The position numbers and the translations under genes were made by a program. A model generated the notes under the pieces. That model saw nothing but the letters and a program-made list of their open reading frames with translations. It searched no databases and was not told the origin of the DNA. 64,000 nt of DNA from the NCBI GenBank assembly GCA_012837735.1, contig DUQP01000036.1:7152-71151 (forward strand). The letters are read 5' to 3'. Positions within the stretch are counted from its first letter, which is position 1; every line of letters begins with the position of its first letter. The DNA is from Bacillota bacterium (GTDB lineage Bacteria > Bacillota > Sulfobacillia > UBA3575 > DUQP01). Positions 3,923 to 42,204 of the stretch are shown piece by piece.

Positions 3923-5203
3923 TCACGACCGATCATGATCAGGGCTCACTTCTCTGGCACCCTCTTCGGTCGCCAATATATATTTTCGCAACAGCATAAG
4001 GGCTTCCCACACTGCTCTTTGTCTAACTTCGTTGCGCTGACCGGGGAACCAACGTCGCCATTGTTTTGTACCAGCTGGGCCAGCCACCGCGATGTGAACT
4101 AATCCGACCGGCTTTTCCGGGCTACCGCCCCCCGGTCCGGCCACTCCGGTGATGCCCACCGCCAGCGTCGTCCCCAGCCGGACCCGCCCGCCTTCCGCCA
4201 AAGCTACCGCCACCTGCGGGCTAACAGCCCCATGTGCCCTGATCAGGTTTGCCGGAACGCCGGCCAATGTTTCTTTCGCCCGGTTAGCATAACATACCAA
4301 GCCCCCGACAAAAACATCCGAAGCCCCCGGCACTGCCGTCAACCGTCCTGCCAAACGACCACCCGTGCAGGACTCCACGCTGGCCAGTGTCGCTCCCCGG
4401 CGGCGCAGTTCATCCAGTATGACTTGCTCCAGCGTTTCATCATCGCTTCCGTAAATCAAGGTGCCCAAGCGGGCGCGCAATTTTTGTTCCAATGGTTCCA
4501 ATAACCGCTGGGCCATTGCCGAGTCATCGGCCTTGGCTGTCAGGCGCAGACGCACTTCCCCCAGCGCAGCCAACGGAGCCAATGTGGGGTTGGTCTGCTC
4601 CGCTAACAAATCGCTGATCCGTTCCACTAAAGCGGACTCCCCAATCCCACACAACCGCAGGCTACGGGAAACAATTACTTGTTTGCCGCAGCCGTGCCGA
4701 CGCAAGTGTGCAACCGCTTGCTTCCAAACCGCCCGCACCTCATGGGGTGGTCCCGGCAATGATATGACAATCTTCCCTTCGTGTGGGACAAACAACCCAG
4801 GCGCCGTGCCGACCGGGTTGGCCAGACACACTCCACCGCTCGGCCGCAGCGCCTGCTTGCGATTGGCTTCCGGCATGCCCAAACCACGTTGGGCAAAAAA
4901 CTCCTCCAGGGCGGCCATGGCATCCTGGTCCACTACCAGCTCCCGATTCAACATCAGGGCCACCGCCTCCCGGGTCAGATCGTCTTCCGTCGGGCCCAAG
5001 CCGCCCGTCGTTATTACCAGGTCCACTCTTTGCAAAGCCTCCCGGAGGGCTTCCACCAGCCGCTCCAGGTTATCACCGACCGTAGTTTGCCGATGGACAT
5101 CGACTCCGAGCGCAGCGAGTTCCTGCGCCAGGAATACCGCGTTCGTATTCAAAATCTCACCGAGCAACAGCTCGGTCCCAACAAAAATCAACTCGCCGCG
5201 CAT
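3923..5203 (-). CDS. cinA: Competence/damage-inducible protein CinA (MoCF-binding + NMN deamidase domains)
   Basis: 426 aa; N-terminal MoCF-biosynthesis-like domain (ELIFVGTELLLGEILNTNA) and C-terminal CinA/PncC domain; position upstream of recA as in Bacillus. Confidence 0.9.
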   Translation of the reverse strand: MRGELIFVGTELLLGEILNTNAVFLAQELAALGVDVHRQTTVGDNLERLVEALREALQRVDLVITTGGLGPTEDDLTREAVALMLNRELVVDQDAMAALEEFFAQRGLGMPEANRKQALRPSGGVCLANPVGTAPGLFVPHEGKIVISLPGPPHEVRAVWKQAVAHLRRHGCGKQVIVSRSLRLCGIGESALVERISDLLAEQTNPTLAPLAALGEVRLRLTAKADDSAMAQRLLEPLEQKLRARLGTLIYGSDDETLEQVILDELRRRGATLASVESCTGGRLAGRLTAVPGASDVFVGGLVCYANRAKETLAGVPANLIRAHGAVSPQVAVALAEGGRVRLGTTLAVGITGVAGPGGGSPEKPVGLVHIAVAGPAGTKQWRRWFPGQRNEVRQRAVWEALMLLRKYILATEEGAREVSPDHDRS

Positions 5204-6880: not shown

Positions 6881-8401
6881 TCAAGCAGGACCCTGCCGAA
6901 CCTGCCAGTCACTTGACGGAAGTGGCTGGGGCTCTAGCAGCATGGAGCGCAACTCCTCGCCGGTCAACATTTCATCATGTAACAGTCGATTTGCCACTAT
7001 CTCCAACACGCCCCGGAATTGGCACAGCAGCCTGTGGGCCCGTTCCTCCTCCCGGCGCAACACAGCGGTGATCATGTCATGCACCTGTTGCGCAGGCACT
7101 GTTTCCTCATCGATCACGCCCAATGGTGATAATCCGCCATAGACAATCCGTTTTGCCAAACCAAGGGCATTTTGAAAATCATTCCCCGCCCCGGTGCTGC
7201 GGTTGCCAAACATCAACTCTTCCGCCACGGCACCTCCCAGGGCGACACAAATTTCATCCTCCAGCATTTCCTTAGTATACAAATACACATCCTCGGCCGG
7301 TGTGTTGCGCACATATCCAAGCGTAGCGCCGCGCGGGGAAATGTTGATACTGGACACATACCCGGGCTTCAATACCTCGCCCACCAAGGCATGCCCTCCT
7401 TCATGGAAGGCAACCCGGCGCAATTCACTTTGCGAGGGCTGTCTGTCGATCCGCTCGCCCAACATGACTTTTTCGATCGCCTCGATAAATTCTGTCTGGC
7501 CAATCTCGCCCTTGCCTGCCCGGCGGGCTAAAATGGCAGCCTCGTTAGCCACGCTTTCGAGGTGGGCACCGGAGAAACCGAATGTTTGTCTGGCGATCTC
7601 ATGCAAATCAACATCTTCCGCCAATGGCTTGTTCCGTACATGTAGTGTTATGATCTGGTAGCGCGCTGTCTTATCCGGCAACTCCACCCGCACCACCCGG
7701 TCAAAGCGTCCCGGCCGGAGCAAAGCCTCATCAAGTAAATCAGCCCGGTTTGTCGCACCCACCACCAATACGAGCACCTCATGCTCAGAGACCGTCAAGC
7801 CATCCATTTCTACCAGTAGCTGGTTCAAGGTCTGATCATATTCCAGGTGCGAGGAATGCTTGCCGCGCTTGCCACCCAACACCTCCAACTCATCGATAAA
7901 AATGATGGCGCTTTTTTTCCCGCGCTTGCGCGCCTCTTCCCGCGCCTGGCGAAACACATCCCGTACCCGTTGCGCCCCCACCCCCGCGTAGACCTCAATG
8001 AACTCACTTCCAGAAGTCGCTATGAAAACAGAATCAGTGTAACTGGCCGCTGCTTTGGCCAGCATCGTCTTGCCGGTACCAGGTGGACCAACAAGCAAAA
8101 TGCCCTTTAAGGGCCTGATTCCCAAAGCCAGCAATGAATCCCGATCCCGCACAAAATCCAGTGCCTCCACCAATTCTTTTTTGGAGTTCTCCTGACCGCC
8201 GACGTCCTCAAAGGATACCGTCGGCACCTGCGAAGCCTGCAAAACCGTATGTTGTCGCCGGCGCAGCCCTTGGCTTCCGACCGTCAGGAACAGGAAATAT
8301 AACAAGCCGCCCAGGAAAAGCAGCGGAATGACATTGTATCCTTGGATGCCCAAAAAGATCAAACAAGCCAGCACCAACCCGATCCCAACGTCTTTTATCA
8401 A
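6881..8401 (-). CDS. Short FtsH-family AAA+ zinc metalloprotease (paralog; two close-set N-terminal TM helices, no periplasmic domain)
   Basis: 506 aa; Walker A GPPGTGKT, Walker B IIFIDELE, SRH region, M41 HEXXH (HEGGHALVG). About 100-150 aa shorter than canonical FtsH. Confidence 0.85.
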   Translation of the reverse strand: MIKDVGIGLVLACLIFLGIQGYNVIPLLFLGGLLYFLFLTVGSQGLRRRQHTVLQASQVPTVSFEDVGGQENSKKELVEALDFVRDRDSLLALGIRPLKGILLVGPPGTGKTMLAKAAASYTDSVFIATSGSEFIEVYAGVGAQRVRDVFRQAREEARKRGKKSAIIFIDELEVLGGKRGKHSSHLEYDQTLNQLLVEMDGLTVSEHEVLVLVVGATNRADLLDEALLRPGRFDRVVRVELPDKTARYQIITLHVRNKPLAEDVDLHEIARQTFGFSGAHLESVANEAAILARRAGKGEIGQTEFIEAIEKVMLGERIDRQPSQSELRRVAFHEGGHALVGEVLKPGYVSSINISPRGATLGYVRNTPAEDVYLYTKEMLEDEICVALGGAVAEELMFGNRSTGAGNDFQNALGLAKRIVYGGLSPLGVIDEETVPAQQVHDMITAVLRREEERAHRLLCQFRGVLEIVANRLLHDEMLTGEELRSMLLEPQPLPSSDWQVRQGPA

Positions 8402-29212: not shown

Positions 29213-30169
29213 TTAACGTGGTACCAGCCACCGCACCAGGGTCAATAGCGGTTTCAAAAAAGCAATCCCCATCACGACCGTAGCGAGGTTAAAAAATGTT
29301 TGCAAATTAGCCAGGCACCGCTCCGGGCCTAAGATGTACCAGCCACACAGCCATAACAACTGTCTGACCCAGGGAATAGCCAAAGCCACTCCCAAAATAT
29401 TGAACATCAAGTGAAAGATCGCCAACCGGCGCGCTTCCCGGCCTCGCCCACTGGCCGCCAGCAGAGCGGTCACGCAGGTGCCGATATTGCTGCCCAACAC
29501 CATCCCGGCCGCTCCCAACATTGGTATCACTCCGCCCGCTGCCAGCCCCATGGCCAAACCGGTGACAGCGCTACTGCTCTGCAAAATGCCGGTCACGACC
29601 GTTCCAGCAGCCAACCCGGAATAAAAATTGGCGCCGCCGTGTAATAATCCTGCTGCCGGTGTGGCGCTTGCGAAAACAACCATCAACTCCAGACCAACGA
29701 ATACCAGGCCCAATCCGCCGCAGCAGTAAGCACACAGCCGGCCGCGCTTGCCCCCCAGCATACTGACCATGGCCAATAAAAACAACAGTGGACTAAATAG
29801 CAAAGGCCGCCAGGCAGCGATCTGTCCGGTGACAGTTGTGCCCAGATTGGCACCCAGCACCAACAGGGCAGCGGCGGGCAACGGCACGATACCCGCCTCA
29901 GTCAGGGACACGACAATCACGCTCACGGCGCTACTGCTTTGCACCAGGGCAGTCACCAATATACCGGTCACCACCGCCAACCAGGGTCGACGACCCCACT
30001 TCCGCACCACTCTGTGCAACGAATCACCGGCCAAGCCATGCAGTCCCGATCGCAGCCCAGCCAAGCCGCCCCAAAAAACCAGCAACCCGAACAGGACCCC
30101 GCCCCATGCCACACTCGCACTGACCACCGGCCCCGCCTCCCTGCCAATAACCCTATGTGAAAAACACAA
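29213..30169 (-). CDS. Na+/phosphate symporter family protein (NptA/PNaS-like, short form)
   Basis: 318 aa polytopic with a duplicated QSSSA motif. Confidence 0.65.
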   Translation of the reverse strand: MCFSHRVIGREAGPVVSASVAWGGVLFGLLVFWGGLAGLRSGLHGLAGDSLHRVVRKWGRRPWLAVVTGILVTALVQSSSAVSVIVVSLTEAGIVPLPAAALLVLGANLGTTVTGQIAAWRPLLFSPLLFLLAMVSMLGGKRGRLCAYCCGGLGLVFVGLELMVVFASATPAAGLLHGGANFYSGLAAGTVVTGILQSSSAVTGLAMGLAAGGVIPMLGAAGMVLGSNIGTCVTALLAASGRGREARRLAIFHLMFNILGVALAIPWVRQLLWLCGWYILGPERCLANLQTFFNLATVVMGIAFLKPLLTLVRWLVPR

Positions 30170-30195
30170 GGCTTAGCAGGGTTTCCATCCTCTGG

Positions 30196-30243
30196 ATTAT
30201 ACCATAAAAAGGCCCATCCCCCACAATTACTTGGGGGATGGGC
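30196..30243 (-). promoter_or_regulatory. Terminator of the tepA-ylzJ unit followed immediately by an extended -10 promoter (TGGTATAAT) for the Na/Pi symporter gene
   Basis: Minus strand: GCCCATCCCCC-aagtaattgt-GGGGGATGGGC then CTTTTTATGG, then TATAAT with a TG extension 30 nt upstream of the symporter start. Confidence 0.5.
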
Positions 30244-30255
30244 TAATAGCGTGCT

Positions 30256-30471
30256 TCACTGCAGGGGCAATTCCACTATCTGCCCTGGAGCCCATTGGGC
30301 ATCCAAAAAATCCTGCGGGTCTGTGCTCAGCAGGCGAACCAGTCTCCAGCGGTGCTCACCGTTTTGCCGGGCAACAATTACCCACCTGCCGCGGTAGGAG
30401 CAGGTCTTTTGCTGTTCGTTCCCAGCTTGCCATAACACCTGTTCCAAAGGCACCGGCGTATAAATGATCAA
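30256..30471 (-). CDS. ylzJ: YlzJ-like protein
   Basis: 71 aa conserved small protein located between tepA and ftsK, as in B. subtilis; overlaps the tepA stop. Confidence 0.65.
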
Positions 30472-31313
30472 TGCAGCCTCGCCTCCGCAGGCATTCCCGG
30501 CCCCAAGGCAGGGCCGGTGCCAATCTCCTCCGGCGGGTGGAATGCCTGTCGCAGCCGTTGCACGGCCAAATCCAGGCCCCCTACCGCGTCAATCAGGCCT
30601 TCCGCAACCGCATCCCTGCCCACCAACACCGTCCCAATGTCCCGGGCCAAGCCACCGGTACTGAACATCAATTCCCGAAACCGTTCCTCGGGACAACGCG
30701 AATGCGCAACGACGAATTGGATCACTCTATCCTGCATTTTATCCAAATACTCGTACGTCTGCGGCACACCGATCACCAGACCGGATAGACGGATCGGGTG
30801 GATAGTCATGGTCGCCGTGGGCGCGATAATGGAATAATCACAGGCCACCCCAATCGGTACCCCAATCGAGTGACCACCACCCAGCACGATGGAAACGGTC
30901 GGTTTGCTGAGACTGGCCAATAGCTCGGCAATGGCCAGGCCCGCTTCCACATCGCCTCCCACCGTGTTCAAAATCACCAACAACCCTTTCACATCTGGAT
31001 TCTGCTCAATGGCCACCAACTGCGGAATCACATGTTCATATTTTGTTGTCTTGTTTTGCGATGGTAGCACCATGTGTCCCTCGATTTGTCCAATAATACT
31101 GAGGGTATGTATATCACTGGCAGGCTTCGGCAGTTGCACCGTGCCCAACTCTGTGATGGCCTCCACTTCTTCAGCCATCCGCTCCTGGTCCTGCACAGGG
31201 CGTTGCACATCGCTGCCTCTATTTACGCGTACCCGCTTGCGCCGTGGAGCCATTTGTTGATATGAGTGCCGCTTCCGCATTAGGCGCACCAATTTCTCAC
31301 CCTTTCCGATCAC
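30468..31313 (-). CDS. tepA: ClpP-family translocation-enhancing protein TepA
   Basis: ClpP/crotonase fold ([22 protein letters not shown]...); synteny rnjB-tepA-ylzJ-ftsK. Confidence 0.8.
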
Positions 31314-31396
31314 AATCCAAAACCTCTCCCCTATTATCCGAAAGGATGGCCCAAGTCATACGAGGGAGCGACCGTCTTGGCCACTCCCCCGTCAGA

Positions 31397-33130
31397 TTAG
31401 ACCTCCATTATGATCGGCAGGATCATCGGCCTGCGCCTTGTTCGCTCATAAAGGTACTGGCCAAGCACATCCCGCAGCTTTGATTTTAACGCTGACCATT
31501 CTGCCACACAATCTGCCTCTTCGTCCAAAGCCGCCCGGACCCGTTGCTTGGCTTCCTCCAACAGTTCTTCCGATTCCCGCACATAAACGAAGCCCCGTGA
31601 TACGATTTCTGGCCCAGCCAGCAACTGTTGACCGGCTTTGTCTATCGCCACGACTACGATCAAAATGCCGTCTTGCGACAGTTGTCTGCGGTCCCGCAAG
31701 ACTATGTTGCCCACATCACCGATCCCCAAGCCGTCTACCAACACATTCCCGGCCGGCACTTTACCCGTGATGGCACCCTTATCCCGACTAAACTCAAAAA
31801 CGGAACCATTCTCACCCACGAAAATATTTTCGGGCGCAATCCCCATTTCTTGAGCTAATGCGGCGTGATGGACCAAATGCCGGTATTCGCCATGGATCGG
31901 GATAAAATATTTTGGCCGCACCAAATTAAACAGCAATTTCAACTCTTCCCGGCTGGCATGGCCGGACACGTGCACGCCTGATTCAGCGCCATAAATCACA
32001 CTTGCCCCAAGGCGAAACAGGTTGTCCGTTGTGCGCTGGACCAGCTTTTCATTCCCTGGAACGGGGTTGGCAGCAATAATCACGGTATCACCAGGCACAA
32101 TTTCCACTCTCCGGTGCTCGTTCAAGGACATGCGTGTCAGTCCTGACATGGGCTCGCCCTGACTGCCGGTCGTCAGAATCACAGCCTGGCGATGGGGCAG
32201 ACGCGCTAATTCATCCATAGTCACGAGCACGTTCTCGGGCACATTGATGTAACCTAGTTCCACCGCAACATTAACCGTGTTTTCCATGTTACGACCGATC
32301 ACAGCCACCTTCCGCCCGTTTTGACCGGCAGCCTCAATCACCTGCTGAATCCGATGAACGTTGGACGCAAAAGTGGCAACCAGCACACGCTGTTCAGCCT
32401 GGCTGATAATCTCCAGCAACCGGCGGCCGACTACCTTCTCAGACTGAGTGTATCCCTCTTTTTCCGCGTTAGTACTATCTGACATCAACACCAATACGCC
32501 TCGGTCACCCAGTTCCGCCAGTTTGCCAAAATCGGAAATTTCGTCGTCCACTGGTGTCTGATCGAATTTGAAATCCCCGCTATGCAAGATAGTGCCCACC
32601 GGCGTATGGATGGCCAGACCCACTACATCTGCAATGCTATGGTTCATGCGGAAAAATTCCACTTCAATGTCGCCGACCGTCAGGCACTCGCCCGCCGAAA
32701 CCACCTGTGAACCGGGCGGCAACTTCAGGCCACTATCGCACAGCTTGCGCTCCAGCAAGCCCATTGTGAGACGGGTGCCAAACACCGGCACATTGATCTG
32801 GGGTAGCAAAAACGGTAGTGCTCCGATATGATCCTCATGTCCGTGCGTCAACACGATGGCCCGAATCTGGGCTGAGTTGGCCAATAGGAAAGAGATATCC
32901 GGGATCACCACGTCGATCCCCAGCATCTCCTCTTCCGGAAAAGCTAACCCGGCATCCACGACCAAAATGTCATCTCGATAACAGATGGCCATCATGTTTT
33001 TGCCGATCTCCCCAAGTCCCCCTAGTGTTACAATTTTTAGTTTATCTCCTAGCAACTTTAAATTTTCACCCCCTTTTCCTTTGTGACGAATCACAAATAG
33101 TTTTTCTACCACCAAAAGGACGCAAACCAA
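31397..33130 (-). CDS. rnj: Ribonuclease J (metallo-beta-lactamase/beta-CASP)
   Basis: 577 aa; HxHxDH motif (HGHEDHIG), beta-CASP and C-terminal domain. Confidence 0.9.
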   Translation of the reverse strand: MVCVLLVVEKLFVIRHKGKGGENLKLLGDKLKIVTLGGLGEIGKNMMAICYRDDILVVDAGLAFPEEEMLGIDVVIPDISFLLANSAQIRAIVLTHGHEDHIGALPFLLPQINVPVFGTRLTMGLLERKLCDSGLKLPPGSQVVSAGECLTVGDIEVEFFRMNHSIADVVGLAIHTPVGTILHSGDFKFDQTPVDDEISDFGKLAELGDRGVLVLMSDSTNAEKEGYTQSEKVVGRRLLEIISQAEQRVLVATFASNVHRIQQVIEAAGQNGRKVAVIGRNMENTVNVAVELGYINVPENVLVTMDELARLPHRQAVILTTGSQGEPMSGLTRMSLNEHRRVEIVPGDTVIIAANPVPGNEKLVQRTTDNLFRLGASVIYGAESGVHVSGHASREELKLLFNLVRPKYFIPIHGEYRHLVHHAALAQEMGIAPENIFVGENGSVFEFSRDKGAITGKVPAGNVLVDGLGIGDVGNIVLRDRRQLSQDGILIVVVAIDKAGQQLLAGPEIVSRGFVYVRESEELLEEAKQRVRAALDEEADCVAEWSALKSKLRDVLGQYLYERTRRRPMILPIIMEV

Positions 33131-33213
33131 CGCTGCGCCCTAAAAATCCAGCTCCAAAAGAAACCCCTGCCTCCAGAAACCGTTCCGGAGCGCAGGGACC
33201 GGTAGACGTTATT

Positions 33214-33268
33214 ATTATACATAAATGTGCACAAAAAGTAAAATTCGGGCGGCATCCTGCTGCCGCCC
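33214..33268 (-). promoter_or_regulatory. dapA operon terminator (GGGCGGCAgcaggaTGCCGCCC + T-tract) followed by a putative rnj promoter (TTTACT-N17-TATAAT)
   Basis: Read from the minus strand; the terminator stem maps to 33247-33268, the -35 to 33237-33242 and the -10 to 33214-33219. Confidence 0.5.
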
Positions 33269-33276
33269 TTTCTCTT

Positions 33277-34173
33277 TTAAATCAGCCCTTGTGCGCGCAT
33301 AGCTTCTTTTAGTACAGCCATCTGCGTTTCCGTTGCCTCCACCAGCGGTGGCCGGAAACCGCCACAGGGGAAGCCGACATAACGCAGAGAAGTTTTAATC
33401 GGGATGGGGTTAGTGGTGCAGAAAATTGCCCTGTTGATTGGGAATACCTCCGCATGAATTGCCGCCGCGGTACGAACGTCACCAGCCGTGAAGGCTTGGA
33501 TCATTGCCATCATGCGATCGGCAATCAAGTGACCGGATACGCTCACCACGCCATGTCCTCCGACCGCCAAAATCGGCAGGGTGAGGCTATCATCGCCACT
33601 CAGCACATAGAAATCCTCCGGAACAGAGCGAATGATTTCTGAAACCTGGTCCAGGTCGCCACTGGCTTCCTTTAGCGCCACAATGTTGTCGATTTCCGCC
33701 AAACGCTTTACCGTTTCGGGTAACAGATTGGAAGCGGTCCGCCCGGGCACATTATATAACATCACTGGTAGGCTGGTCGCTTCCGCCACTGCCTTGAAGT
33801 GCTGATACATACCTTCCTGTGGGGGCTTGTTGTAAGCCGGTACGACCAGCAGAACTCCATCCACTCCCACCTTTTCCGCCTCTTTAGTGAGAGCGATGCT
33901 GGCAGCGGTGTCGTTGCTGCCCGTGCCGCCCCAAACCGGTACCCGCGCTCCAACTGCCGCCACCACCGCTGCCATCAAGCGCAGCTTTTCTTCCACGGTC
34001 AGTGTCACCGCTTCCCCCGTTGAACCACTAACCAACAGGCCATCAGAGCCCAAATCGACCAACCGCCGCGCCAGTTCCTGCGCGCGCTGATAATCGACCT
34101 GCAGGTTTTCATCGAACGGTGTCACCATGGCAGTGATAACCCTGCTCATCTCTTTCACAGGCCACACCCCCAA
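33277..34173 (-). CDS. dapA: 4-hydroxy-tetrahydrodipicolinate synthase
   Basis: 298 aa; DapA-type TIM barrel with Schiff-base Lys region. Confidence 0.9.
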   Translation of the reverse strand: MGVWPVKEMSRVITAMVTPFDENLQVDYQRAQELARRLVDLGSDGLLVSGSTGEAVTLTVEEKLRLMAAVVAAVGARVPVWGGTGSNDTAASIALTKEAEKVGVDGVLLVVPAYNKPPQEGMYQHFKAVAEATSLPVMLYNVPGRTASNLLPETVKRLAEIDNIVALKEASGDLDQVSEIIRSVPEDFYVLSGDDSLTLPILAVGGHGVVSVSGHLIADRMMAMIQAFTAGDVRTAAAIHAEVFPINRAIFCTTNPIPIKTSLRYVGFPCGGFRPPLVEATETQMAVLKEAMRAQGLI

Positions 34174-34174
34174 A

Positions 34175-35434
34175 TTATAATCCGTTCCCTCCCAGATCGA
34201 AAGCCCCGTGCAAAGCTCGCACAGCCGCTACCATCTCATCCTGCTTGACCAGGCAGGAAATCGTCACGTGCGAATCGGTGGAATGCCTGATCTGCACACC
34301 GGCGGCGTGTAAAGCGGTGACAACGCGCGCCATCACCCCGGGCACCCCCCGCATGCCAGAGCCCACCACAGACACTTTGGCACAATTTCTCTCCGCCTGA
34401 TAGGCCAATTCCAAATCAGCTAAAACATCCTGTGCTTTTCCCATCAGCTCTTCTTTGATAATAAAAATCTTTACCTCGGGTAAGACGGTAATCATATCAA
34501 GACTGATCCCAACCTCAGCCAGATTTTGGAATAGCCGCACTTCCGTATCATCCGCTACCGGCGCAGGCGTGAACACCTTTAGCTGCGCCATCTCTGGGAT
34601 CTGCGTCACCCCGGTCACTACCCGCTCATGACCCTGCTGACCCCAGATATCCTGGCTTTGGTAATTGTATGTGATCATGGTACCGGGCTGATCTGAGGTA
34701 GTGGACCGGATTTGCAACGGTATGTTGCGGCGCATGGCGATCTCCACCGCCCGGGGGTGAATCACTTTCGCTCCCTCATGGGCCATTTGGCAAATTTCAT
34801 CGTAAGTAATCACAGGTAGCGTACGTGCCTCCGGGACAATGCGCGGGTCGGCAGTCTTGATTCCTTCCACGTCCGTGAAAATGTCGATCCGTTCCGCTGC
34901 CAAAGCGACACCTAGGGCGGCGGCGGTTGTGTCGCTGCCACCCCTGCCCAACGTGGTAATCTCGCCAGTCTCGGCCGCGCCTTGGAATCCCGCCACGATT
35001 ACAATTCGGCCTGCACGCAAGTGTTTCAAGATCGATTCCGGCTCCACCCGTTTGATGGTCGCATTTGTGAAACAATCGTCCGTCAAGATGCCGGCCTGGG
35101 CGCCAGTCAATACCGTCGCATCGTATCCGTGTGCTTTCAATGTATTGGCCATCACGACAGCCGAGATTATCTCACCGCAGGACACCAGCAGATCCATCTC
35201 GCGCGGATTCGGATCCTGACAGCCCGATTGCGCAATCTTGATGAACGTGTCCGTGGCATACGGGTCACCGGCCCGTCCCATGGCAGAGACCACTACCACC
35301 GGGCTGAAACCCTCTTGCACAGCTTTTATTACATGGCCGACCGCCTGTTCCCGTAACTCAGGCGTGGCAACGGATGTACCGCCAAATTTTTGAATCAAAA
35401 TACGCATTCTCTTCTCCTCCCCTAGCACCATCAA
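34175..35434 (-). CDS. lysC: Aspartate kinase
   Basis: 419 aa; amino acid kinase domain (ILIQKFGGTSV) and C-terminal ACT domains. Confidence 0.9.
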   Translation of the reverse strand: MMVLGEEKRMRILIQKFGGTSVATPELREQAVGHVIKAVQEGFSPVVVVSAMGRAGDPYATDTFIKIAQSGCQDPNPREMDLLVSCGEIISAVVMANTLKAHGYDATVLTGAQAGILTDDCFTNATIKRVEPESILKHLRAGRIVIVAGFQGAAETGEITTLGRGGSDTTAAALGVALAAERIDIFTDVEGIKTADPRIVPEARTLPVITYDEICQMAHEGAKVIHPRAVEIAMRRNIPLQIRSTTSDQPGTMITYNYQSQDIWGQQGHERVVTGVTQIPEMAQLKVFTPAPVADDTEVRLFQNLAEVGISLDMITVLPEVKIFIIKEELMGKAQDVLADLELAYQAERNCAKVSVVGSGMRGVPGVMARVVTALHAAGVQIRHSTDSHVTISCLVKQDEMVAAVRALHGAFDLGGNGL

Positions 35435-36447
35435 GCCGGCAAGAGACCTTTCGCCAACATGTATTCCGCGATCTGGATGGCGTTTGTGGCCGCCCCTTTG
35501 CGTAGATTATCAGCTACAACCCACATCAGCAGACCGTTCGGCCGATCCAGGTCCTCCCTGATTCTTCCCACGCACACATCATCTGACCCTGCGCAATTAA
35601 TTGCCAGCGGATACTGATTGCCACTGGGGTCATCAAGCACCTTCACGCCCGCTTCCATCAGGATCTGCCTGGCCTGGGAAGCCGTCACTTTTTCTTCCGT
35701 CTCGATCCAAATTGATTCCGAGTGCCCATAGAGCACTGGTACCCGCACAGTAGTGGCTGCGATTTCAATGTGCTCATCACCCATGATTTTTCTTGTTTCT
35801 CGCACCATCTTCATTTCTTCCCCAGAATAGCCATCAGCACCAATGGTATCGATATGGGGGAGAACGTTGAAGGCAATTTGGTGTGGATACACAACCGGCT
35901 CCACTGCTTGGCCCTCTAAAATCGCCCGGCTTTGACTGATCAATTCCTGCAGGGCCAAAAGGCCGCTGCCGGAAACGGCCTGATATGTGGACACGACGAT
36001 CCGTTTTAGTCCCGCCCGGCGCCGGATTGGTTCCAACGCCACCACCATCTGAATGGTGGAACAGTTTGGGCTGGCGATGATTCCCTGATGCTGGTGAATG
36101 TCATTGGGATTTACTTCCGGTACCACCAATGGCACCGCTGGATCCATCCGGAAGGCATTGCTTTTGTCAATCACAACTGCTCCCCGCGCCACCGCCTGGG
36201 GCGCCAGTTCCCGTGAGACCTGGGTATTGGCGCAGAAAAACGCCAGGTCAACCGCAGCGAACGCATCCGCTGCGGCTTCCTGGATCTGATACTCCCGCCC
36301 GCCTAGCTGCACTGTCTGACCAGCCGAGCGCGCCGATGCCATCGGTACTAAATCCGCCAACGGAAACCCGCGCTGTTCCAGCAGGGTGAGGAATTGCCGT
36401 CCGACGGCGCCTGTAACGCCTACAATGGCAACGCGTAAATCTGGCAA
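35431..36447 (-). CDS. asd: Aspartate-semialdehyde dehydrogenase
   Basis: 338 aa; NAD-binding VAIVGVTGAVG and catalytic SNCSTI. Confidence 0.9.
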   Translation of the reverse strand: MPDLRVAIVGVTGAVGRQFLTLLEQRGFPLADLVPMASARSAGQTVQLGGREYQIQEAAADAFAAVDLAFFCANTQVSRELAPQAVARGAVVIDKSNAFRMDPAVPLVVPEVNPNDIHQHQGIIASPNCSTIQMVVALEPIRRRAGLKRIVVSTYQAVSGSGLLALQELISQSRAILEGQAVEPVVYPHQIAFNVLPHIDTIGADGYSGEEMKMVRETRKIMGDEHIEIAATTVRVPVLYGHSESIWIETEEKVTASQARQILMEAGVKVLDDPSGNQYPLAINCAGSDDVCVGRIREDLDRPNGLLMWVVADNLRKGAATNAIQIAEYMLAKGLLPA

Positions 36448-36478
36448 GTTCTCTCCTCCCTTTCCTCACCGATCACTA

Positions 36479-37090
36479 TTAATCATAAGATACCAACAAT
36501 GGTTGGATTTGTCTCCCATCAAGTGCCGCCTCAATTGTCGCAATCAATTTCTCCATATTAGCTACTAATGATTTCGGTTTGCTCTGCGGGTTATCCTGTC
36601 CAAACGGCACAAAATAGACATTCCGCGCCACCAAGAGAGCACCGATGTTCCTGGCGTTTAACCCCAGCCCATCGTTAGTGGACATAGCCAACACCACCGG
36701 CCGTTCATTGCGGAGGTGCGCTTTCACCGTCATGGTCACCACGCTATCTGTGATAGCATGGGCAATCTTGGCCAGCGTGTTGCCGGTGCAAGGTGCCACT
36801 ACCACCACATCAAACAACTGTTGCGGTCCGATCGGCTCCACCTCGACAATGGAAGTAAGAGCCCTTGTTCCTGTGGCGGCTTCTAGAGCCTGCCGCCAGT
36901 GGGACGCTGTACCAAATCTGGTATCCGTGTTGGCAACTGCCTCGGAAAGGATTGGCACCACCTTGGCACCCGTTGCCACGACCGCCGCCACGCTCGGCAT
37001 GACATCAGCCAGAGTGCAGTGCGAGCCACATAAGGCAAAACCAACCCTTTTCCCCTCAAGTTTCAATCCCAGGTTCCTCCCCTGCCGCAA
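36479..37090 (-). CDS. dpaB: Dipicolinate synthase subunit B (flavoprotein, SpoVFB)
   Basis: 203 aa flavoprotein fold (GFALCGSHCTL..) immediately after dpaA. Confidence 0.8.
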   Translation of the reverse strand: MRQGRNLGLKLEGKRVGFALCGSHCTLADVMPSVAAVVATGAKVVPILSEAVANTDTRFGTASHWRQALEAATGTRALTSIVEVEPIGPQQLFDVVVVAPCTGNTLAKIAHAITDSVVTMTVKAHLRNERPVVLAMSTNDGLGLNARNIGALLVARNVYFVPFGQDNPQSKPKSLVANMEKLIATIEAALDGRQIQPLLVSYD

Positions 37091-37986
37091 GTGATTACAG
37101 GGGGAGAATATTCAGGTAAGAACAGTCGCAAAACAGTTTCCGCAACAATCAAGCCCGCTGTGTGGGGCGCCACCCGGGCCGGCAGCCCCGGGGCCAATAC
37201 CGCCGGGATCCCCAACTGCGCAGCTGATGGGAAATCCACCCCGCCGGGATAAGAGGCCAAATCGATCACTACCGTCCCTGGTGGCAATCGCGAAAGCAAA
37301 CTGCGGTCCAATACCAAAGCCGGTACGGTGTTGAAGATCACCTCCGCCAGCTGGATGTAGTCTGCTAACTTGTTAAACGGGACCGCATGGTAACAGTGGG
37401 CAGCGATTTGCGCCAGAACCTCTGGCCGCCTTGCGGCCACCCAAACGTGGGCCCCAATTCCATGTAGCATCCTGGCCAGTGTGTTGCCGGTACGGCCAAA
37501 ACCGAGCACGAAAGCCTGCGCACCATGGATGGTAATCGGCATCCGTTCCATTGCCATGGCTATGGCGCCCTCCGCCGAAGGCACCGAGTTCAAGATAGCG
37601 AAATCATCTCGTTCCCGGAACTCCACTAACTTCCGGCCTACTTTAACCGCCAGACTACGCAACCAGGGCTGCGCCAAGCCGATGAAGAGTGGGCAATTAG
37701 CCGGCATACTGCGCAAGACGGTTTCGTTCAATACCGGTGCCGGTTTTTGCAAAGCATACACTCGACCCTCGCCATCGGTTCCCAGCACTGGCGCTAACAC
37801 CAGTTGCGCCTGGGCGACCGCCGCTACCGGGTCATCGGTTACATGCACCTTTTCTCTAAACCGCTCACTGTTGAGGCCACAAACGGTCAGCCTGGCACCC
37901 CAAGCCTGAAAAAATAGGGCCGCCTCTACCTCGCGGGCATCTCCGCCCAGCAGGCATATTTCAAGTCCTGCCAGTTTCTCCGTCAC
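37063..37986 (-). CDS. dpaA: Dipicolinate synthase subunit A (SpoVFA)
   Basis: 307 aa; Rossmann-like dehydrogenase domain; position ymxH-dpaA-dpaB-asd as in Bacillus. Confidence 0.8.
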   Translation of the reverse strand: MTEKLAGLEICLLGGDAREVEAALFFQAWGARLTVCGLNSERFREKVHVTDDPVAAVAQAQLVLAPVLGTDGEGRVYALQKPAPVLNETVLRSMPANCPLFIGLAQPWLRSLAVKVGRKLVEFRERDDFAILNSVPSAEGAIAMAMERMPITIHGAQAFVLGFGRTGNTLARMLHGIGAHVWVAARRPEVLAQIAAHCYHAVPFNKLADYIQLAEVIFNTVPALVLDRSLLSRLPPGTVVIDLASYPGGVDFPSAAQLGIPAVLAPGLPARVAPHTAGLIVAETVLRLFLPEYSPPVITCGRGGTWD

Positions 37987-38092
37987 GCAGCTCCCCCCTA
38001 TCGGTTACCCGTCGCCTGCGGCGTAGCAACGGGTTGAACCAATAGCATTATATGAAAACAAGGGTATTGCCAGTGACAGAAGGCTCCGCTTC

Positions 38093-38833
38093 TCAGTCCT
38101 GGAATAAAAACCCCTCTAAGCCCCATGTAATACCGGTGCTCTCCCGCACTGCCCGCACTGAGTGTAGCACCCCTGGCATAAAAGAACTGCGGCTGTTGCT
38201 ATCATGCCGGATGATGAGCGTTTCACCCAGGCCGCCAAACATGATCTCGTGGTGTGCCACCAGGCCCGGCAGGCGCACGCTATGAATAGGGCATTCTTTT
38301 CCCATGCTCTCCTCAACCCGATTTTGCAACCTGAGCGCAGTACCGGAAGGCGAATCGATTTTTTGGTCATGATGCAGTTCAATGATCTCGGCGTGATCGA
38401 AGAACCTCCCCACTTCAGCTGCCAGCTTCATCATTAACACAGCACCGATGGAAAAGTTCGGAATAATGGCCGCACTCAAACCCGTTTCGCGCACCAATTC
38501 TGCAATCGCATCCAAGTCGGCCTGTGGCAGGGCGGTAGTGCCAATAACCGGCCGGACACCATTTCGGAGAGCTTCCTGAGCCAGCCCGCCGGCCACATCC
38601 GGTTTGGTGAAATCAACCAGCACCTCTGGCTGAGCGGCAAGTGCCGGGGTGAGTTCGTCCAACACAGGTAATCCTACAGGGCGCACCCCGACCACCTCGC
38701 CAATATCCTGGCCGTGATGATCAGCAGCCACCGCTCCCACCAGTTCCATGTCATTGGCTCCCAATACCGCCCGCACGACCTCCTGACCCATCCTGCCCGT
38801 GGCCCCGGTAATTAACACCCGGATCTTCCCCAA
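38093..38833 (-). CDS. dapB: 4-hydroxy-tetrahydrodipicolinate reductase
   Basis: 246 aa; N-terminal NAD(P)-binding VLITGATGRMG. Confidence 0.9.
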   Translation of the reverse strand: MGKIRVLITGATGRMGQEVVRAVLGANDMELVGAVAADHHGQDIGEVVGVRPVGLPVLDELTPALAAQPEVLVDFTKPDVAGGLAQEALRNGVRPVIGTTALPQADLDAIAELVRETGLSAAIIPNFSIGAVLMMKLAAEVGRFFDHAEIIELHHDQKIDSPSGTALRLQNRVEESMGKECPIHSVRLPGLVAHHEIMFGGLGETLIIRHDSNSRSSFMPGVLHSVRAVRESTGITWGLEGFLFQD

Positions 38834-38877
38834 CTATTTCATCCCCTTTCCCACTCACGCTCATCAGCAGAGGGAAG

Positions 38878-39122
38878 TACAAAAAAAGCCCACGAAGGTA
38901 CTCCGTCGGCTAAGCCAAGGGGTACTCAACTCCCGTTTGAGATAGCACTCCACCGCCTTCCCGGGAAAGGAAAGCAATGACAGTGTTGTACCTGTTCAGC
39001 ACAACCCCAGCCCAGGGGTACCGGCCACCGCCCGGGCTTCGGCGGAGGCCCCTTTCCTTACCATTCATCAATGCCCTTTTCCTGGCAAGTACTGATGGCA
39101 TCCGCACCTCTACCTCACTAAC
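38878..39122 (-). ncRNA. Lysine riboswitch (L-box) with intrinsic terminator, in the 5' leader of dapB
   Basis: The minus-strand RNA contains GTAGAGGTGCGGAT, GGAAAGGGGCCTCCGCCGAAG, CTGTCA and GGTGGAGTGCTATCTC, matching conserved L-box segments of B. subtilis lysC (AGAGGTGCGAAC / GAAAGGGGAGCGTCGCCGAAG / CTGTCA / GGAGGGCTATCT). The match is by sequence recollection, not a model search. The leader ends in hairpin GCCGACGGAG-uac-CUUCGUGGGC plus U7 about 45 nt before the dapB start. Confidence 0.7.
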
Positions 39123-39224
39123 GTGAGTAGTGAGGTAACCCTATCCCTATTTTTTTACATCATAGCATATGGACGGAAACAGTGTCAACGAAGTAGGAGC
39201 GGCCACCGGGCCGCTCCTTCCAGT

Positions 39225-39728
39225 TTACCTGCGCACGTCGTGGGTCTCCACGTCCCGGGCCCCGTTACCGCGGAATATATCCGCGGCCTGGCTAACCCGT
39301 CGCTCATCTGCCTTCACCAAGGCGATGATCCCGCCGGAGCGTAATCGTTGTTCATATTCCCGCCCGCGTTCTTCCGGAATGCCCCAGTCCAACAAACCCC
39401 CGGCCACACCGCCCGTAACGGCGCCACTCAATACACCTGCGATTGGGCCCGCCGCCACGATTGGGCCAATGCCAGGAATAGCCAGGGCACCAGCTCCAGC
39501 CAGCAGGCCCGCCAATCCACCGATGGCACCACCCCAACTCACACCAGTGCCCAGTTGTTCGCCAGTACCCATGGTGGTATCTATGCCACCACTGCCACTT
39601 TCCCGCCCGCTTTCATCACGGGCAATGATGGAGATCTCGTTCTGCCTGAAACCCCGGCTACGCAATTCCTGCACAGCTTGTTCCGCATCATCCCGCGATG
39701 TGAAGACACCGATTACCGATTTTTCCAC
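39225..39728 (-). CDS. General stress protein YflT/GSP17M-like (glycine-zipper)
   Basis: 167 aa; N-terminal VIGVF..EQAVQELRSRGF domain and central Gly-rich zipper. Confidence 0.55.
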   Translation of the reverse strand: MEKSVIGVFTSRDDAEQAVQELRSRGFRQNEISIIARDESGRESGSGGIDTTMGTGEQLGTGVSWGGAIGGLAGLLAGAGALAIPGIGPIVAAGPIAGVLSGAVTGGVAGGLLDWGIPEERGREYEQRLRSGGIIALVKADERRVSQAADIFRGNGARDVETHDVRR

Positions 39729-39815
39729 TTAACCAACCTCCCCTGGCGTTCTCACGTTTATTGTTGCCTAATTACCACCATCATCATTCAAGATTTGCTC
39801 AGGGAGGCAGAGACA

Positions 39816-40070
39816 TTATTCTACTTTTACGATCATCAGGTCGGGACCAATCCGCACGACTGCTTTCCATGGTATCCCTATTTGCCGGCGATGACCAATG
39901 TTAAGCAAACCTTTGTCAAGCGGCACCAAAATTTCCGCGATCTCCCCTGTCTGAGGATCAATGGTCAAATCCGAGTCCCCCACGCGGCCCAAACGCGTGG
40001 CGTCGCCCACATTGACAATTTCCTTACCGCGCATTTCGCTCAACCGCAAATACATCACCACCCCATTCAA
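39816..40070 (-). CDS. ymxH: PRC-barrel sporulation protein YmxH/YlmC family
   Basis: 84 aa; PRC barrel (GKEIVNVGDATRLGRVGDSDLTIDPQTGEI); located upstream of dpaA as in Bacillus. Confidence 0.7.
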   Translation of the reverse strand: MNGVVMYLRLSEMRGKEIVNVGDATRLGRVGDSDLTIDPQTGEIAEILVPLDKGLLNIGHRRQIGIPWKAVVRIGPDLMIVKVE

Positions 40071-40450
40071 CGGTAATCCTGGCGGTCAAAAAACGGGTAG
40101 ATAATCGCCACCAATAATGCTATCCCAGCCAGTGGTTCCACCTGAAAGCCAAACGGTAAATGCAAGCGGGCCGGGAGCTCGATCTGCAAAAAACTGACCA
40201 AAAGCACCAATGAAACATAAATCCCGCCGGCCGTGGCGACTAAATCCCGCACAGCACGTGATATCGGTGAAGGTTGCGGAACAACCGGTAAATCGCTCTC
40301 TTGACGCACAGACAGGTTGGCAGCGCGCCTGTGCACGGAAAGCACCGAGAGCGCCGCCAGAATGAAGATGCCGATCAAGATCCCCGCCATCACCCCACCC
40401 CTCCTTCCCCTTACCCCAGGATTATGCGGGTCAGGAGGGATTTTGCGCAA
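40067..40450 (-). CDS. Small hypothetical membrane protein
   Basis: Two to three hydrophobic helices; start uncertain (internal MAGILIGIF). Confidence 0.35.
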   Translation of the reverse strand: MRKIPPDPHNPGVRGRRGGVMAGILIGIFILAALSVLSVHRRAANLSVRQESDLPVVPQPSPISRAVRDLVATAGGIYVSLVLLVSFLQIELPARLHLPFGFQVEPLAGIALLVAIIYPFFDRQDYR

Positions 40451-40481
40451 AAAAAATTGGGGGTTTCACCCCCACAAGCTT

Positions 40482-40935
40482 TCAACCCGTGTGCCCAAAA
40501 CCGCCCTCGCCACGTTCCGTTTCGGCCAGCTCTTCCACTTGGACCAAATCCGCTCTGCCCACCCTGGCAAACACCATTTGGGCGATCCGGTCTCCCCTGC
40601 GGATGGTGACAGGTGCCTGGCCGAGGTTGATCATGATCACTTGGATCATACCCCGAAAATCGGCATCGATCGTGCCGGGACTGTTCAGCAAAGTCAATCC
40701 GGTACGCAATGCCAATCCACTGCGGGGTCGCAGTTGCGCCTCCCAGCCGGGGGGAATCTCCATAAAAAGTCCAGTGGGCACCAAAGCAGTCTCTCCCGGC
40801 TGCACAACCATTTCCTGCGTCACAGCAGCAGGGATGTCCAATCCTGCGCTCCCAGCCGTCATATAACGGGGCAAAGGGAGATCCCTGGCCGCTGTATTCC
40901 GTCTAATGCGCACCGTCAATTCCATTTTTCTCCCC
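40482..40935 (-). CDS. dut: dUTP diphosphatase
   Basis: Start MELTVRI (RBS GGGGGAG); motifs AGLDL-like (SAGLDI), [15 protein letters not shown]. Confidence 0.85.
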
Positions 40936-42204
40936 CGTTCCGACCACTGTTTGCAGGTACCAATGCCCATCGGCAGCCAGTTCCGGACCCACCAGAGCAA
41001 TTGTCGGTGGTTTAGCAAACAGTCTCTTGGCCAATTTCTGTACTCCTTCTGGGGTGGTGGCAGAGAGTTTTTGGATCACCTCGGCCGGTGGTATCACTTT
41101 CCCCATTAACAGCTCCATCCGCCCCAGTCTGCTCATCCGCGCACCAGTGTTTTCCAAATTCATCATCAATGTTGCCTTGAGCTGCGCCACAGCCCGCTCG
41201 TGTTCCTCTGTCGTGATGCCGTCTTGCTTGATGTTCGCCAATTCTGTCCGGACCAGATCCACGACCGCTTTCACATTGCCCGGGTTCATGCCCGCATAGA
41301 CGGTCAATAAGCCACAATCTCGGCATGACTGCAAGTAGGAATACACAGAATAAGCGAGACCGCGATCCTCTCGTATACCCTGAAAAAGGCGGGAACTGCT
41401 GCCGCCACCAAGCAAATTATTTAACACCTGCAGATGATATATATCCTGGTCATCATGTCCCAGACCGGTCACGCCCAGACAAATATGGGCCTGTTCAATC
41501 GCTCTCGTGATGACGGCCAGCCGTGATCCGGCTTGGGCAGGGCTCCCGATTGCTGTTTTGCCGCCCGTTGGCAGTGCACTGAAGACATCTGACACGATCT
41601 GAACCAACTCATCGTGTACCAGGTTGCCGGCGGCAGCGATCACAATATTGTCTGCCGTGTAGTGGTTTGCGAAGAACCGCTGCAAATCACTGCGACTGAA
41701 GGTTTGTACCGTCTGCTCCGAACCCAGCACCGATCTGCCCAGCGGATGCCCATGCCAAATAGTAGCGTTGAACAGATCGTGGACCAAATCTTCCGGCGTG
41801 TCTTCATACATACGGATCTCTTCTATGATAACACCTTTTTCCCGTTCTATATCATCCTCATCAAAGCGCGATGCCAGCAACATATCCGCCAGCAATTCCA
41901 AACCAGTAATCATGTATTCATCCAAAATCCGCACATAAAAACAGGTATACTCTTTGCCGGTGAAGGCATTTAATTGCCCACCTACTGATTCGATCTGTTC
42001 CGCTATCTCTCTGGCAGTGCGGTGCTCAGTCCCCTTAAAAAGCAAATGCTCCAGGAAATGCGTGATCCCAGCCTGATCTTCCGCCTCACTGCGGGAACCA
42101 ATCCCCACCCAAACTCCGATCGCCACTGAGCGCACACTGTTAACATGTTCCGTCACGAGCCGTAATCCGTTTGGCAGCGTAGTTTTCTGATAATGGCTGG
42201 TCAA
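40903..42204 (-). CDS. M16 family zinc peptidase (MlpA/YmxG-like)
   Basis: 433 aa; inverted zinc-binding motif HFLEH ([14 protein letters not shown]). Confidence 0.85.

Follow-up and report, generated by a model that had tools for sequence, protein, structure and literature searches.

Does lysine control the whole of a biosynthetic gene string in which the genes for dipicolinate synthase are embedded, or do these genes also have a promoter of their own for sporulation? The question is raised by a stretch of 64,000 nucleotides from a Bacillota bacterium (hereafter the window), in which a structured leader precedes the genes dapB, dpaA, dpaB, asd, an aspartate kinase gene and dapA. A first-pass annotation, made from the letters alone, had read this leader as a lysine riboswitch. 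The answer that we favor, and consider likely as a whole, is a functional lysine-OFF L-box at the head of a read-through operon of six genes, with an internal sigma-K-type promoter. All coordinates given without a locus name are those of the window, and all of the features that they denote lie on its minus strand.

The identity of the leader was settled by the Infernal check with the Rfam model RF00168 (Lysine) that had been proposed in the first-pass annotation. The model matched at 39120..38935 over its full length (model positions 1-182 of 182) with 119.1 bits against a gathering score of 30 (E 3.1e-31), and no other Rfam family reached its gathering score in the 64-kb window. The covariance-model match and the consensus fold define an L-box aptamer with helices P1-P5 at 38935..39120, in which P1 is formed by 39117..39110 paired with 38945..38938. 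It is located in a 5' UTR, between a sigma-70-type promoter and dapB on the same strand. The leader carries hallmark L-box segments, as noted before, and the segments of the conserved core are all present (AGAGGUGC, GAAAGGGG, GCCGAAG, CUGGG, ACUGUCA and GGAGUGCUA), and they are invariant or nearly so among homologous leaders. The RNAalifold consensus of the four homologous leaders available contains 48 base pairs, 24 of which show at least one double compensatory change (n = 4 sequences), and the five-helix junction is kept by such changes. The leader is a genuine lysine riboswitch with firm membership in the L-box family, and its aptamer would be expected to bind lysine.

An ORF of 65 aa overlapping the aptamer, which had been called spurious, does exist at 38910..39107. 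The small ORFs annotated at this site in public records of the organism disagree with one another (one contig has 63 aa, another has 49 aa in the opposite orientation), and no aptamer-overlapping ORF of consistent frame or length was found in the checked leaders of related genomes. For this uncultured genome, the annotation can be corrected by placing a riboswitch where spurious small ORFs are now called.

The leader is flanked by the elements expected for transcription attenuation. The sigma-70-type promoter (39159..39188; TTGACA, an 18-nt spacer and TG-n-TATGAT) agrees with the consensus at 11 of 12 positions and has an extended -10 TG. It was the top promoter-like site within the scanned region 30000..41000, and transcription is expected to start near 39152. 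Equivalent TTGACA-N17 promoters lie before the aptamer in Candidatus Acetocimmeria pyornia (L029), Moorella thermoacetica (L010) and Calderihabitans maritimus (L084). On the other side of the aptamer, folding and comparison with shuffled sequences identified an intrinsic terminator at 38881..38911. Its 10-bp stem with one G.G mismatch and the loop UAC (AGCC.GACGGAG-UAC-CUUCGU.GGCU, 38911..38887) is followed by seven U at 38887..38881; the hairpin has -14.3 kcal/mol, and 0.2% of shuffles equal its arm pairing. The TTG start codon of dapB at 38833 begins 47 nt after the end of the U-run, in good agreement with the distance of about 45 nt first given for a hairpin with U7.

A further hairpin, S0, is found at the 5' end of the aptamer (39113..39135), with a perfect 8-bp stem made of CCUCACUA and UAGUGAGG (dG -15.8; 2.2% of shuffles equal) and one compensatory change between the window and L029. 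Because S0 overlaps the 5' strand of P1, it competes with P1, and it may either adjust the response to lysine or make up the lower end of an extended P1. A CCUCAY box pairs with the P1 5' strand in a hairpin just before the aptamer at the same site of the window, in L029 (4558..4580) and in L084 (2753..2775).

The gene string behind the leader was confirmed with NCBIfam models at their curated cut-offs, above which all six genes score, including the sporulation genes spoVFA (dpaA) and spoVFB (dpaB) inside it. The first gene, dapB (38093..38833), encodes 4-hydroxy-tetrahydrodipicolinate reductase (TIGR00036, 230 bits against a cut-off of 122, aligned from residue 4). It is followed by dpaA (37063..37986, GTG start; NF006162, 316.2 bits against 261) and dpaB (36479..37090; NF006161, 303.6 bits against 156, aligned from residue 10), encoding subunits A and B of dipicolinate synthase. 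These two genes are adjacent (overlapping or abutting) and both exceed equivalog cut-offs; the true start of dpaB is probably at 37066, overlapping the stop codon of dpaA and giving 195 aa as in the public gene call. The asd gene for aspartate-semialdehyde dehydrogenase (35431..36447; NF011456, 453.8 bits) begins 31 nt after dpaB. An aspartate kinase gene (34175..35434; NF006068, 579.7 bits against 474), with a probable start at 35407 and 410 aa as in the public gene call, and dapA for 4-hydroxy-tetrahydrodipicolinate synthase (33277..34173; TIGR00674, 352 bits against 206) complete the string. The assignment as an aspartate kinase stands, while the earlier name lysC is only loosely right, since the best match is NF006068/PRK08210 and the gene occupies the dapG position, as in spoVF-asd-dapG-dapA of B. 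subtilis.

The start of dapB at TTG 38833 retains the N-terminal GxxGxxG motif. Public dapB calls for this organism (L001, 2196..2894; L002, 2238..2894) start 14 or 28 codons later and lose this nucleotide-binding motif, which is restored either by TTG 38833 or by an in-frame GTG at 38818. The corrected start thus gives dapB its proper N terminus back.

The junctions of the operon are tight with the exception of the 106-nt spacer between dapB and dpaA. The sequence cATATAATg, previously noted in this spacer, was found at 38055..38046, and the question attached to it, whether dpaA has an internal promoter for sporulation, can be answered in favor of such a promoter by comparison across genomes. 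The -10 box CATATAAT (38054..38047, followed by G38046) is preceded at a spacing of 17 nt by a -35 element, TCACT (38076..38072), and together they make up a sigma-K-type motif at 38046..38076. The CATATAAT box was not accepted as the -10 element of a sigma-70 promoter, as no acceptable -35 element lies at 16-18 nt. The B. subtilis sigma-K consensus is KCACM / GCATANNNTA, and the genes of the sigma-K regulon include spoVFA/B (PMC3416734). We searched the 150 nt upstream of dpaA with a relaxed motif, CACY-N15-17-CATAnnnT, which occurs in 69 of 81 loci compared with 0.0075 expected per 150 nt of background; a strict form occurs in 55 of the 81 (0.0005 expected). The aligned regions read aAGCACC-N16-CATATAnTG in clostridial-type loci and tCACC-N16-GCATAaGATg in Bacilli. 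The motif of the window has both CAC and CATAnnnT, with T instead of A or C as the last -35 base, deviating bases flanking the -10 box (tCATATAATg) and a spacer 1 nt longer than in the majority (55 of 81 loci). As a sequence element, the sigma-K-type promoter ahead of dpaA is shared by genomes ranging from Paenibacillus to Moorella-like organisms, and its conservation suggests that the promoter would depend on sigma-K. The motif could be used as a marker of late-sporulation promoters when little-studied clostridial lineages are annotated.

Late in sporulation, the mother cell could use the promoter at 38076..38046, downstream of the riboswitch, and the resulting transcript of dpaA, dpaB, asd, the aspartate kinase gene and dapA would be exempt from lysine feedback. 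The presumed 5' UTR of dpaA holds a hairpin, CCCGUUGC-N10-GCGACGGG (38008..38033), which has no U-run and is not a terminator. Stable hairpins right after the sigma-K-type -10 box were also observed in the spacers of L008, L010, L013, L017, L019, L020, L023 and L024, for example GGATAGT...ACTATCC and GTAGTACA..TGTACTAC. Located where the dpaA mRNA presumably begins, such a hairpin may act as a 5'-terminal stabilizer.

The presence of a promoter in the spacer leads to the question of how far the transcript from the upstream promoter extends. Between the leader and the end of dapA, the spacer included, we found no terminator-like site; the first is the hairpin at 33268..33247, which closes the operon and is followed by the promoter of the RNase J gene (TTTACT-17-TATAAT, 33242..33214). 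No sigma-70-like promoter was found before asd. Since we saw neither a terminator after dapB nor a vegetative promoter ahead of asd, read-through would most likely give a transcript that runs from dapB to dapA and ends at 33268..33247. A vegetative transcript starting at about 39152 would probably pass through dapB, continue by read-through into dpaA and go on to dapA, and the claim that the riboswitch governs the cluster is borne out to this extent: judged from the arrangement of signals, it most likely governs all six genes. The alternative that the riboswitch controls dapB only, and that dpaA through dapA are transcribed solely from the spacer promoter or from undetected promoters, is unlikely but deserves consideration. 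It would make sense of the fact that the string has one sizeable spacer only, that between dapB and dpaA, and that a conserved promoter motif lies in it. In some relatives lacking the riboswitch (L022, L050 and L074), a terminator follows dapB, indicating that the two units are separable. However, the same spacer is devoid of a terminator-like hairpin not only in the window but also in L029 and L010. Moreover, if a sigma-K-type promoter alone served the downstream genes, vegetative cells would be left without asd, aspartate kinase and dapA unless paralogues exist elsewhere, and the lack of a sigma-70-like promoter ahead of asd argues in the same direction.

In the read-through operon that we favor, the leader would act as an L-box by transcription attenuation on transcripts started from the sigma-70-type promoter near 39152. 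With ample lysine, P1 of the aptamer (39120..38935) would close, and the hairpin with U7 (38911..38881) would end transcription ahead of dapB. Under lysine shortage, P1 would remain open, a competing hairpin at about 38925..38898 would hold the 5' arm of the terminator, and the polymerase would read on. We infer this lysine-OFF logic for the window by analogy, from the L-box family and from the homologous leaders. Folding yielded a candidate for the antiterminator at 38898..38925, GUACCC.CUUGGC-UUA-GCCGA.CGG.AGUAC, which would sequester the 5' arm and the loop of the terminator. The candidate pairs the segment after the box downstream of P1 (see below) with the terminator 5' arm; its free energy is -11.5 to -12.3 kcal/mol for the hairpin and -14.5 kcal/mol for the duplex, and 2.2% of shuffles do as well. 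In folds of the growing chain, it appears before the 3' arm of the terminator is made, and it is more complete when the 3' strand of P1 is withheld. Minimum-free-energy folding of the whole leader or of the expression platform only, with P1 enforced, blocked or free, never lost the terminator, which remained the thermodynamic optimum with a pair probability of 0.78-0.96 in the window, L029 and L010, and such folding therefore could not show a switch. Two other pairings were tried and dropped. The textbook antiterminator, made of the P1 3' strand and the terminator 5' arm, was no better than shuffles in any of the four leaders. A pairing of the P5 3' arm (CCCGGGAAGG) with the terminator 3' arm was given up because every fold retains P5 as a stable helix of 12-13 bp.

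The coupling between P1 and the antiterminator is better seen in the relatives. The four leaders are homologous beyond the aptamer, sharing the promoter, a box upstream of P1 (CCUCAUCUC in L029, L010 and L084; CCUCACUACUC in the window) and a box downstream of P1 (GAGAUGAGUA; GAGUUGAGUA in the window). Reading of the Calderihabitans and Moorella sequences reveals that GAGAUGAGUA pairs over 13 and 11 bp, respectively, with the loop and 3' arm of the terminator, and that a second, 8-bp pairing joins it to the box upstream of P1 as an outer extension of P1. These S0:S2 duplexes have -19.8 and -18.1 kcal/mol, equaled by 1.2% and 0.4% of shuffles. Because the same box is shared between the antiterminator and the outer P1, closure of P1 removes the antiterminator in these two leaders, which is the canonical lysine-OFF logic. 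In contrast to the long and obvious antiterminator pairings of Moorella and Calderihabitans, those of the window are short and differently placed, and the expression platform downstream of the shared box cannot be aligned with L010, L084 or L029. A coupling step between P1 and the antiterminator is presumed for the window, where the outer helix that would tie P1 closure to antiterminator loss is indistinguishable from chance (11.6% of shuffles equal).

The P1 3' strand of the window and the segment next to it form a strong alternative pairing (dG -15.5), which alone predicts the opposite logic. In a lysine-ON switch, closed P1 would free 38934..38912 to pair with the terminator 5' arm as an antiterminator, whereas the 3' strand of open P1 would capture 38934..38912 and let the terminator form. 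The segment relay of the window has the matching parity (S1:S2 -15.5, S2:T5 -14.5 and T5:T3 -15.8 kcal/mol), and the fuller antiterminator hairpin of the growing chain upon withholding the P1 3' strand points the same way. If true, it would be a natural L-box in which lysine promotes read-through into dapB and the dipicolinate synthase genes. We nevertheless regard this switch as highly improbable because inducing lysine/DAP synthesis by lysine is physiologically senseless, and because the same segment in Moorella and Calderihabitans is complementary to the box upstream of P1, which extends P1 and restores the OFF logic. To our knowledge, all characterized L-box leaders of biosynthetic genes are OFF switches, which we also count against it. 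Hardly plausible at all is a decaying or non-functional riboswitch remnant whose terminator is a constitutive partial attenuator: it would agree with a terminator that is the thermodynamic optimum in every modeled state and with the cluster running without any riboswitch in most relatives, but not with a 119-bit full-length match, intact core segments and helices maintained by compensatory changes across four diverged genomes, and a strong constitutive terminator before essential genes would be selected against.

With the lysine-OFF operon as the preferred reading, we compared the locus with those of other genomes. A 100% match to DpaA of the window was found only in JGI metagenomes and the next homologue is 53% identical; this sparseness indicates an uncultured, poorly sampled source organism. 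No relative was recovered when genomes were scanned with the single DpaA protein; a profile scan of species-representative genomes provided 80 dpaA loci, to which homologue look-ups added four. When the window proteins were mapped onto them, about 39 clostridial-type loci, including Desulfotomaculum-, Pelotomaculum-, Moorella-, Syntrophomonas-, Thermincola- and Desulfosporosinus-like genomes, showed the order dapB-dpaA-dpaB-asd-aspartate kinase-dapA-RNase J; dapB is absent upstream in Bacilli such as Paenibacillus. Of the 84 comparison loci, 53 were scanned with Rfam, and our own covariance model, R1, was applied to 80 of the loci and to the window. An L-box upstream of dapB was found in only three of about 35 relatives with enough upstream sequence, namely the closest locus, Ca. 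Acetocimmeria pyornia (L029, 126.4 bits), M. thermoacetica (L010, 116.6 bits) and C. maritimus (L084, 113.7 bits). In about 1 Mb, R1, which was built from three GC-rich sequences and may miss AT-rich versions, detected no aptamer beyond those from which it was built. Neither Rfam (11 Paenibacillus loci) nor R1, with this bias toward GC-rich sequences (all loci), detected an L-box at the cluster of Bacilli. The gene order is thus widespread in clostridial-type Bacillota and the riboswitch is not.

No L-box was found in L083, the nearest DpaA homologue, in L085, a Moorellales MAG, or in L086; their intergenic spaces of 146-209 nt are too short for one. The genes upstream of the leader (39225..40450), coding for an M16 peptidase, a dUTPase, a small hypothetical protein, a PRC-barrel protein and a YflT-like protein, are kept in riboswitch-less relatives (L001, L083, L085 and L086). 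From these conserved neighbors, it follows that the L-box sits in an otherwise conserved yflT-dapB or PRC-dapB space, which measures 391 nt with it and 146-209 nt without it. In L029, about 270 nt (4810..5075) separate the riboswitch terminator from dapB, as compared with 47 nt in the window. This region ends in a TGtATCAT box near the ribosome-binding site and may contain a second promoter that bypasses the riboswitch.

The leader resembles the known L-box leaders of B. subtilis lysC and Thermotoga maritima asd in its five-helix aptamer and conserved core, its position in the 5' UTR of lysine/DAP biosynthesis genes and its intrinsic terminator as the expression platform. It differs from known L-boxes in that the first regulated gene is dapB and the operon includes dpaA-dpaB, and in that it lacks the textbook antiterminator; its alternative pairings involve the box upstream of P1 as well as an extra segment located between P1 and the terminator. 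Ca. Acetocimmeria pyornia, M. thermoacetica and C. maritimus have their aptamers (114-126 bits) at the same position ahead of the same six-gene cluster, with a TTGACA-type promoter and the flanking boxes. The B. subtilis dap operon is given as spoVFA-spoVFB-asd-dapG-dapA where PMC6878958 cites Chen et al. 1993. Both there and in the window, the dipicolinate synthase genes are joined to asd, an aspartate kinase gene and dapA, followed by the genes for RNase J and a ClpP/SppA-like protease, and a sigma-K-type promoter precedes dpaA. Unlike the dap operon of Bacilli, which has no dapB upstream, the window adds dapB and a riboswitch-controlled vegetative promoter upstream; in contrast to the B. 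subtilis operon, no separate vegetative promoter is visible before asd.

Most likely, the locus is a two-promoter operon with a lysine-repressible vegetative promoter upstream and a sigma-K-type promoter inside that bypasses the riboswitch. The sporulating mother cell would then make dipicolinate and DAP precursors regardless of lysine, and lysine starvation of vegetative cells would also lead to transcription of the dipicolinate synthase genes. The riboswitch class, the cluster of dipicolinate and DAP genes and the control of spoVF by sigma-K are already known, and the same arrangement of riboswitch and operon is already present in the sequenced genomes of M. thermoacetica and C. maritimus. 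Our literature search found no paper linking a lysine riboswitch to dpaA or spoVF. Among the operons listed in a 2017 survey of riboswitch-controlled lys/dap operons (PMC5584792), none starts with dapB and includes dpaAB, and Moorella goes unmentioned there. The locus is of use mainly in annotation and in illustrating cleanly how a promoter can bypass a riboswitch, and it leaves general knowledge of riboswitches and sporulation unchanged.

Several observations concern the neighborhood and the variants of the cluster. The genes for RNase J and a ClpP/SppA-like protease follow the cluster in the window (30468..33130); the former passes the generic model TIGR00649 but, with 723 bits, falls short of the 820 bits required by the J1 model. 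As RNase J follows dapA in most comparison loci, Bacilli included, the synteny extends well beyond the dap genes. In many Paenibacillus loci (L033, L037-L039, L041, L042 and L044, and further L046, L047, L053, L063, L064 and L070), asd is missing from the cluster and a gap of 200-480 nt (about 7470..7950) separates dpaB from the aspartate kinase gene. An internal L-box was suspected in these gaps, and Rfam detected no RNA family in the eight gap loci scanned. In Gottfriedia acidiceleris and Bacillus sp. AL-1R (L079 and L080, 7320..10520), dpaB and asd are separated by an insertion of about 3.2 kb, and the match to dpaB is shorter than usual. Finally, a complete Bacillota-type dapB-to-dapA cluster with RNase J and the sigma-K-type motif was found in a MAG labeled 'Deltaproteobacteria bacterium' (L003, JAGUVT010000020.1), in which either the bin is mislabeled or the contig is misbinned.
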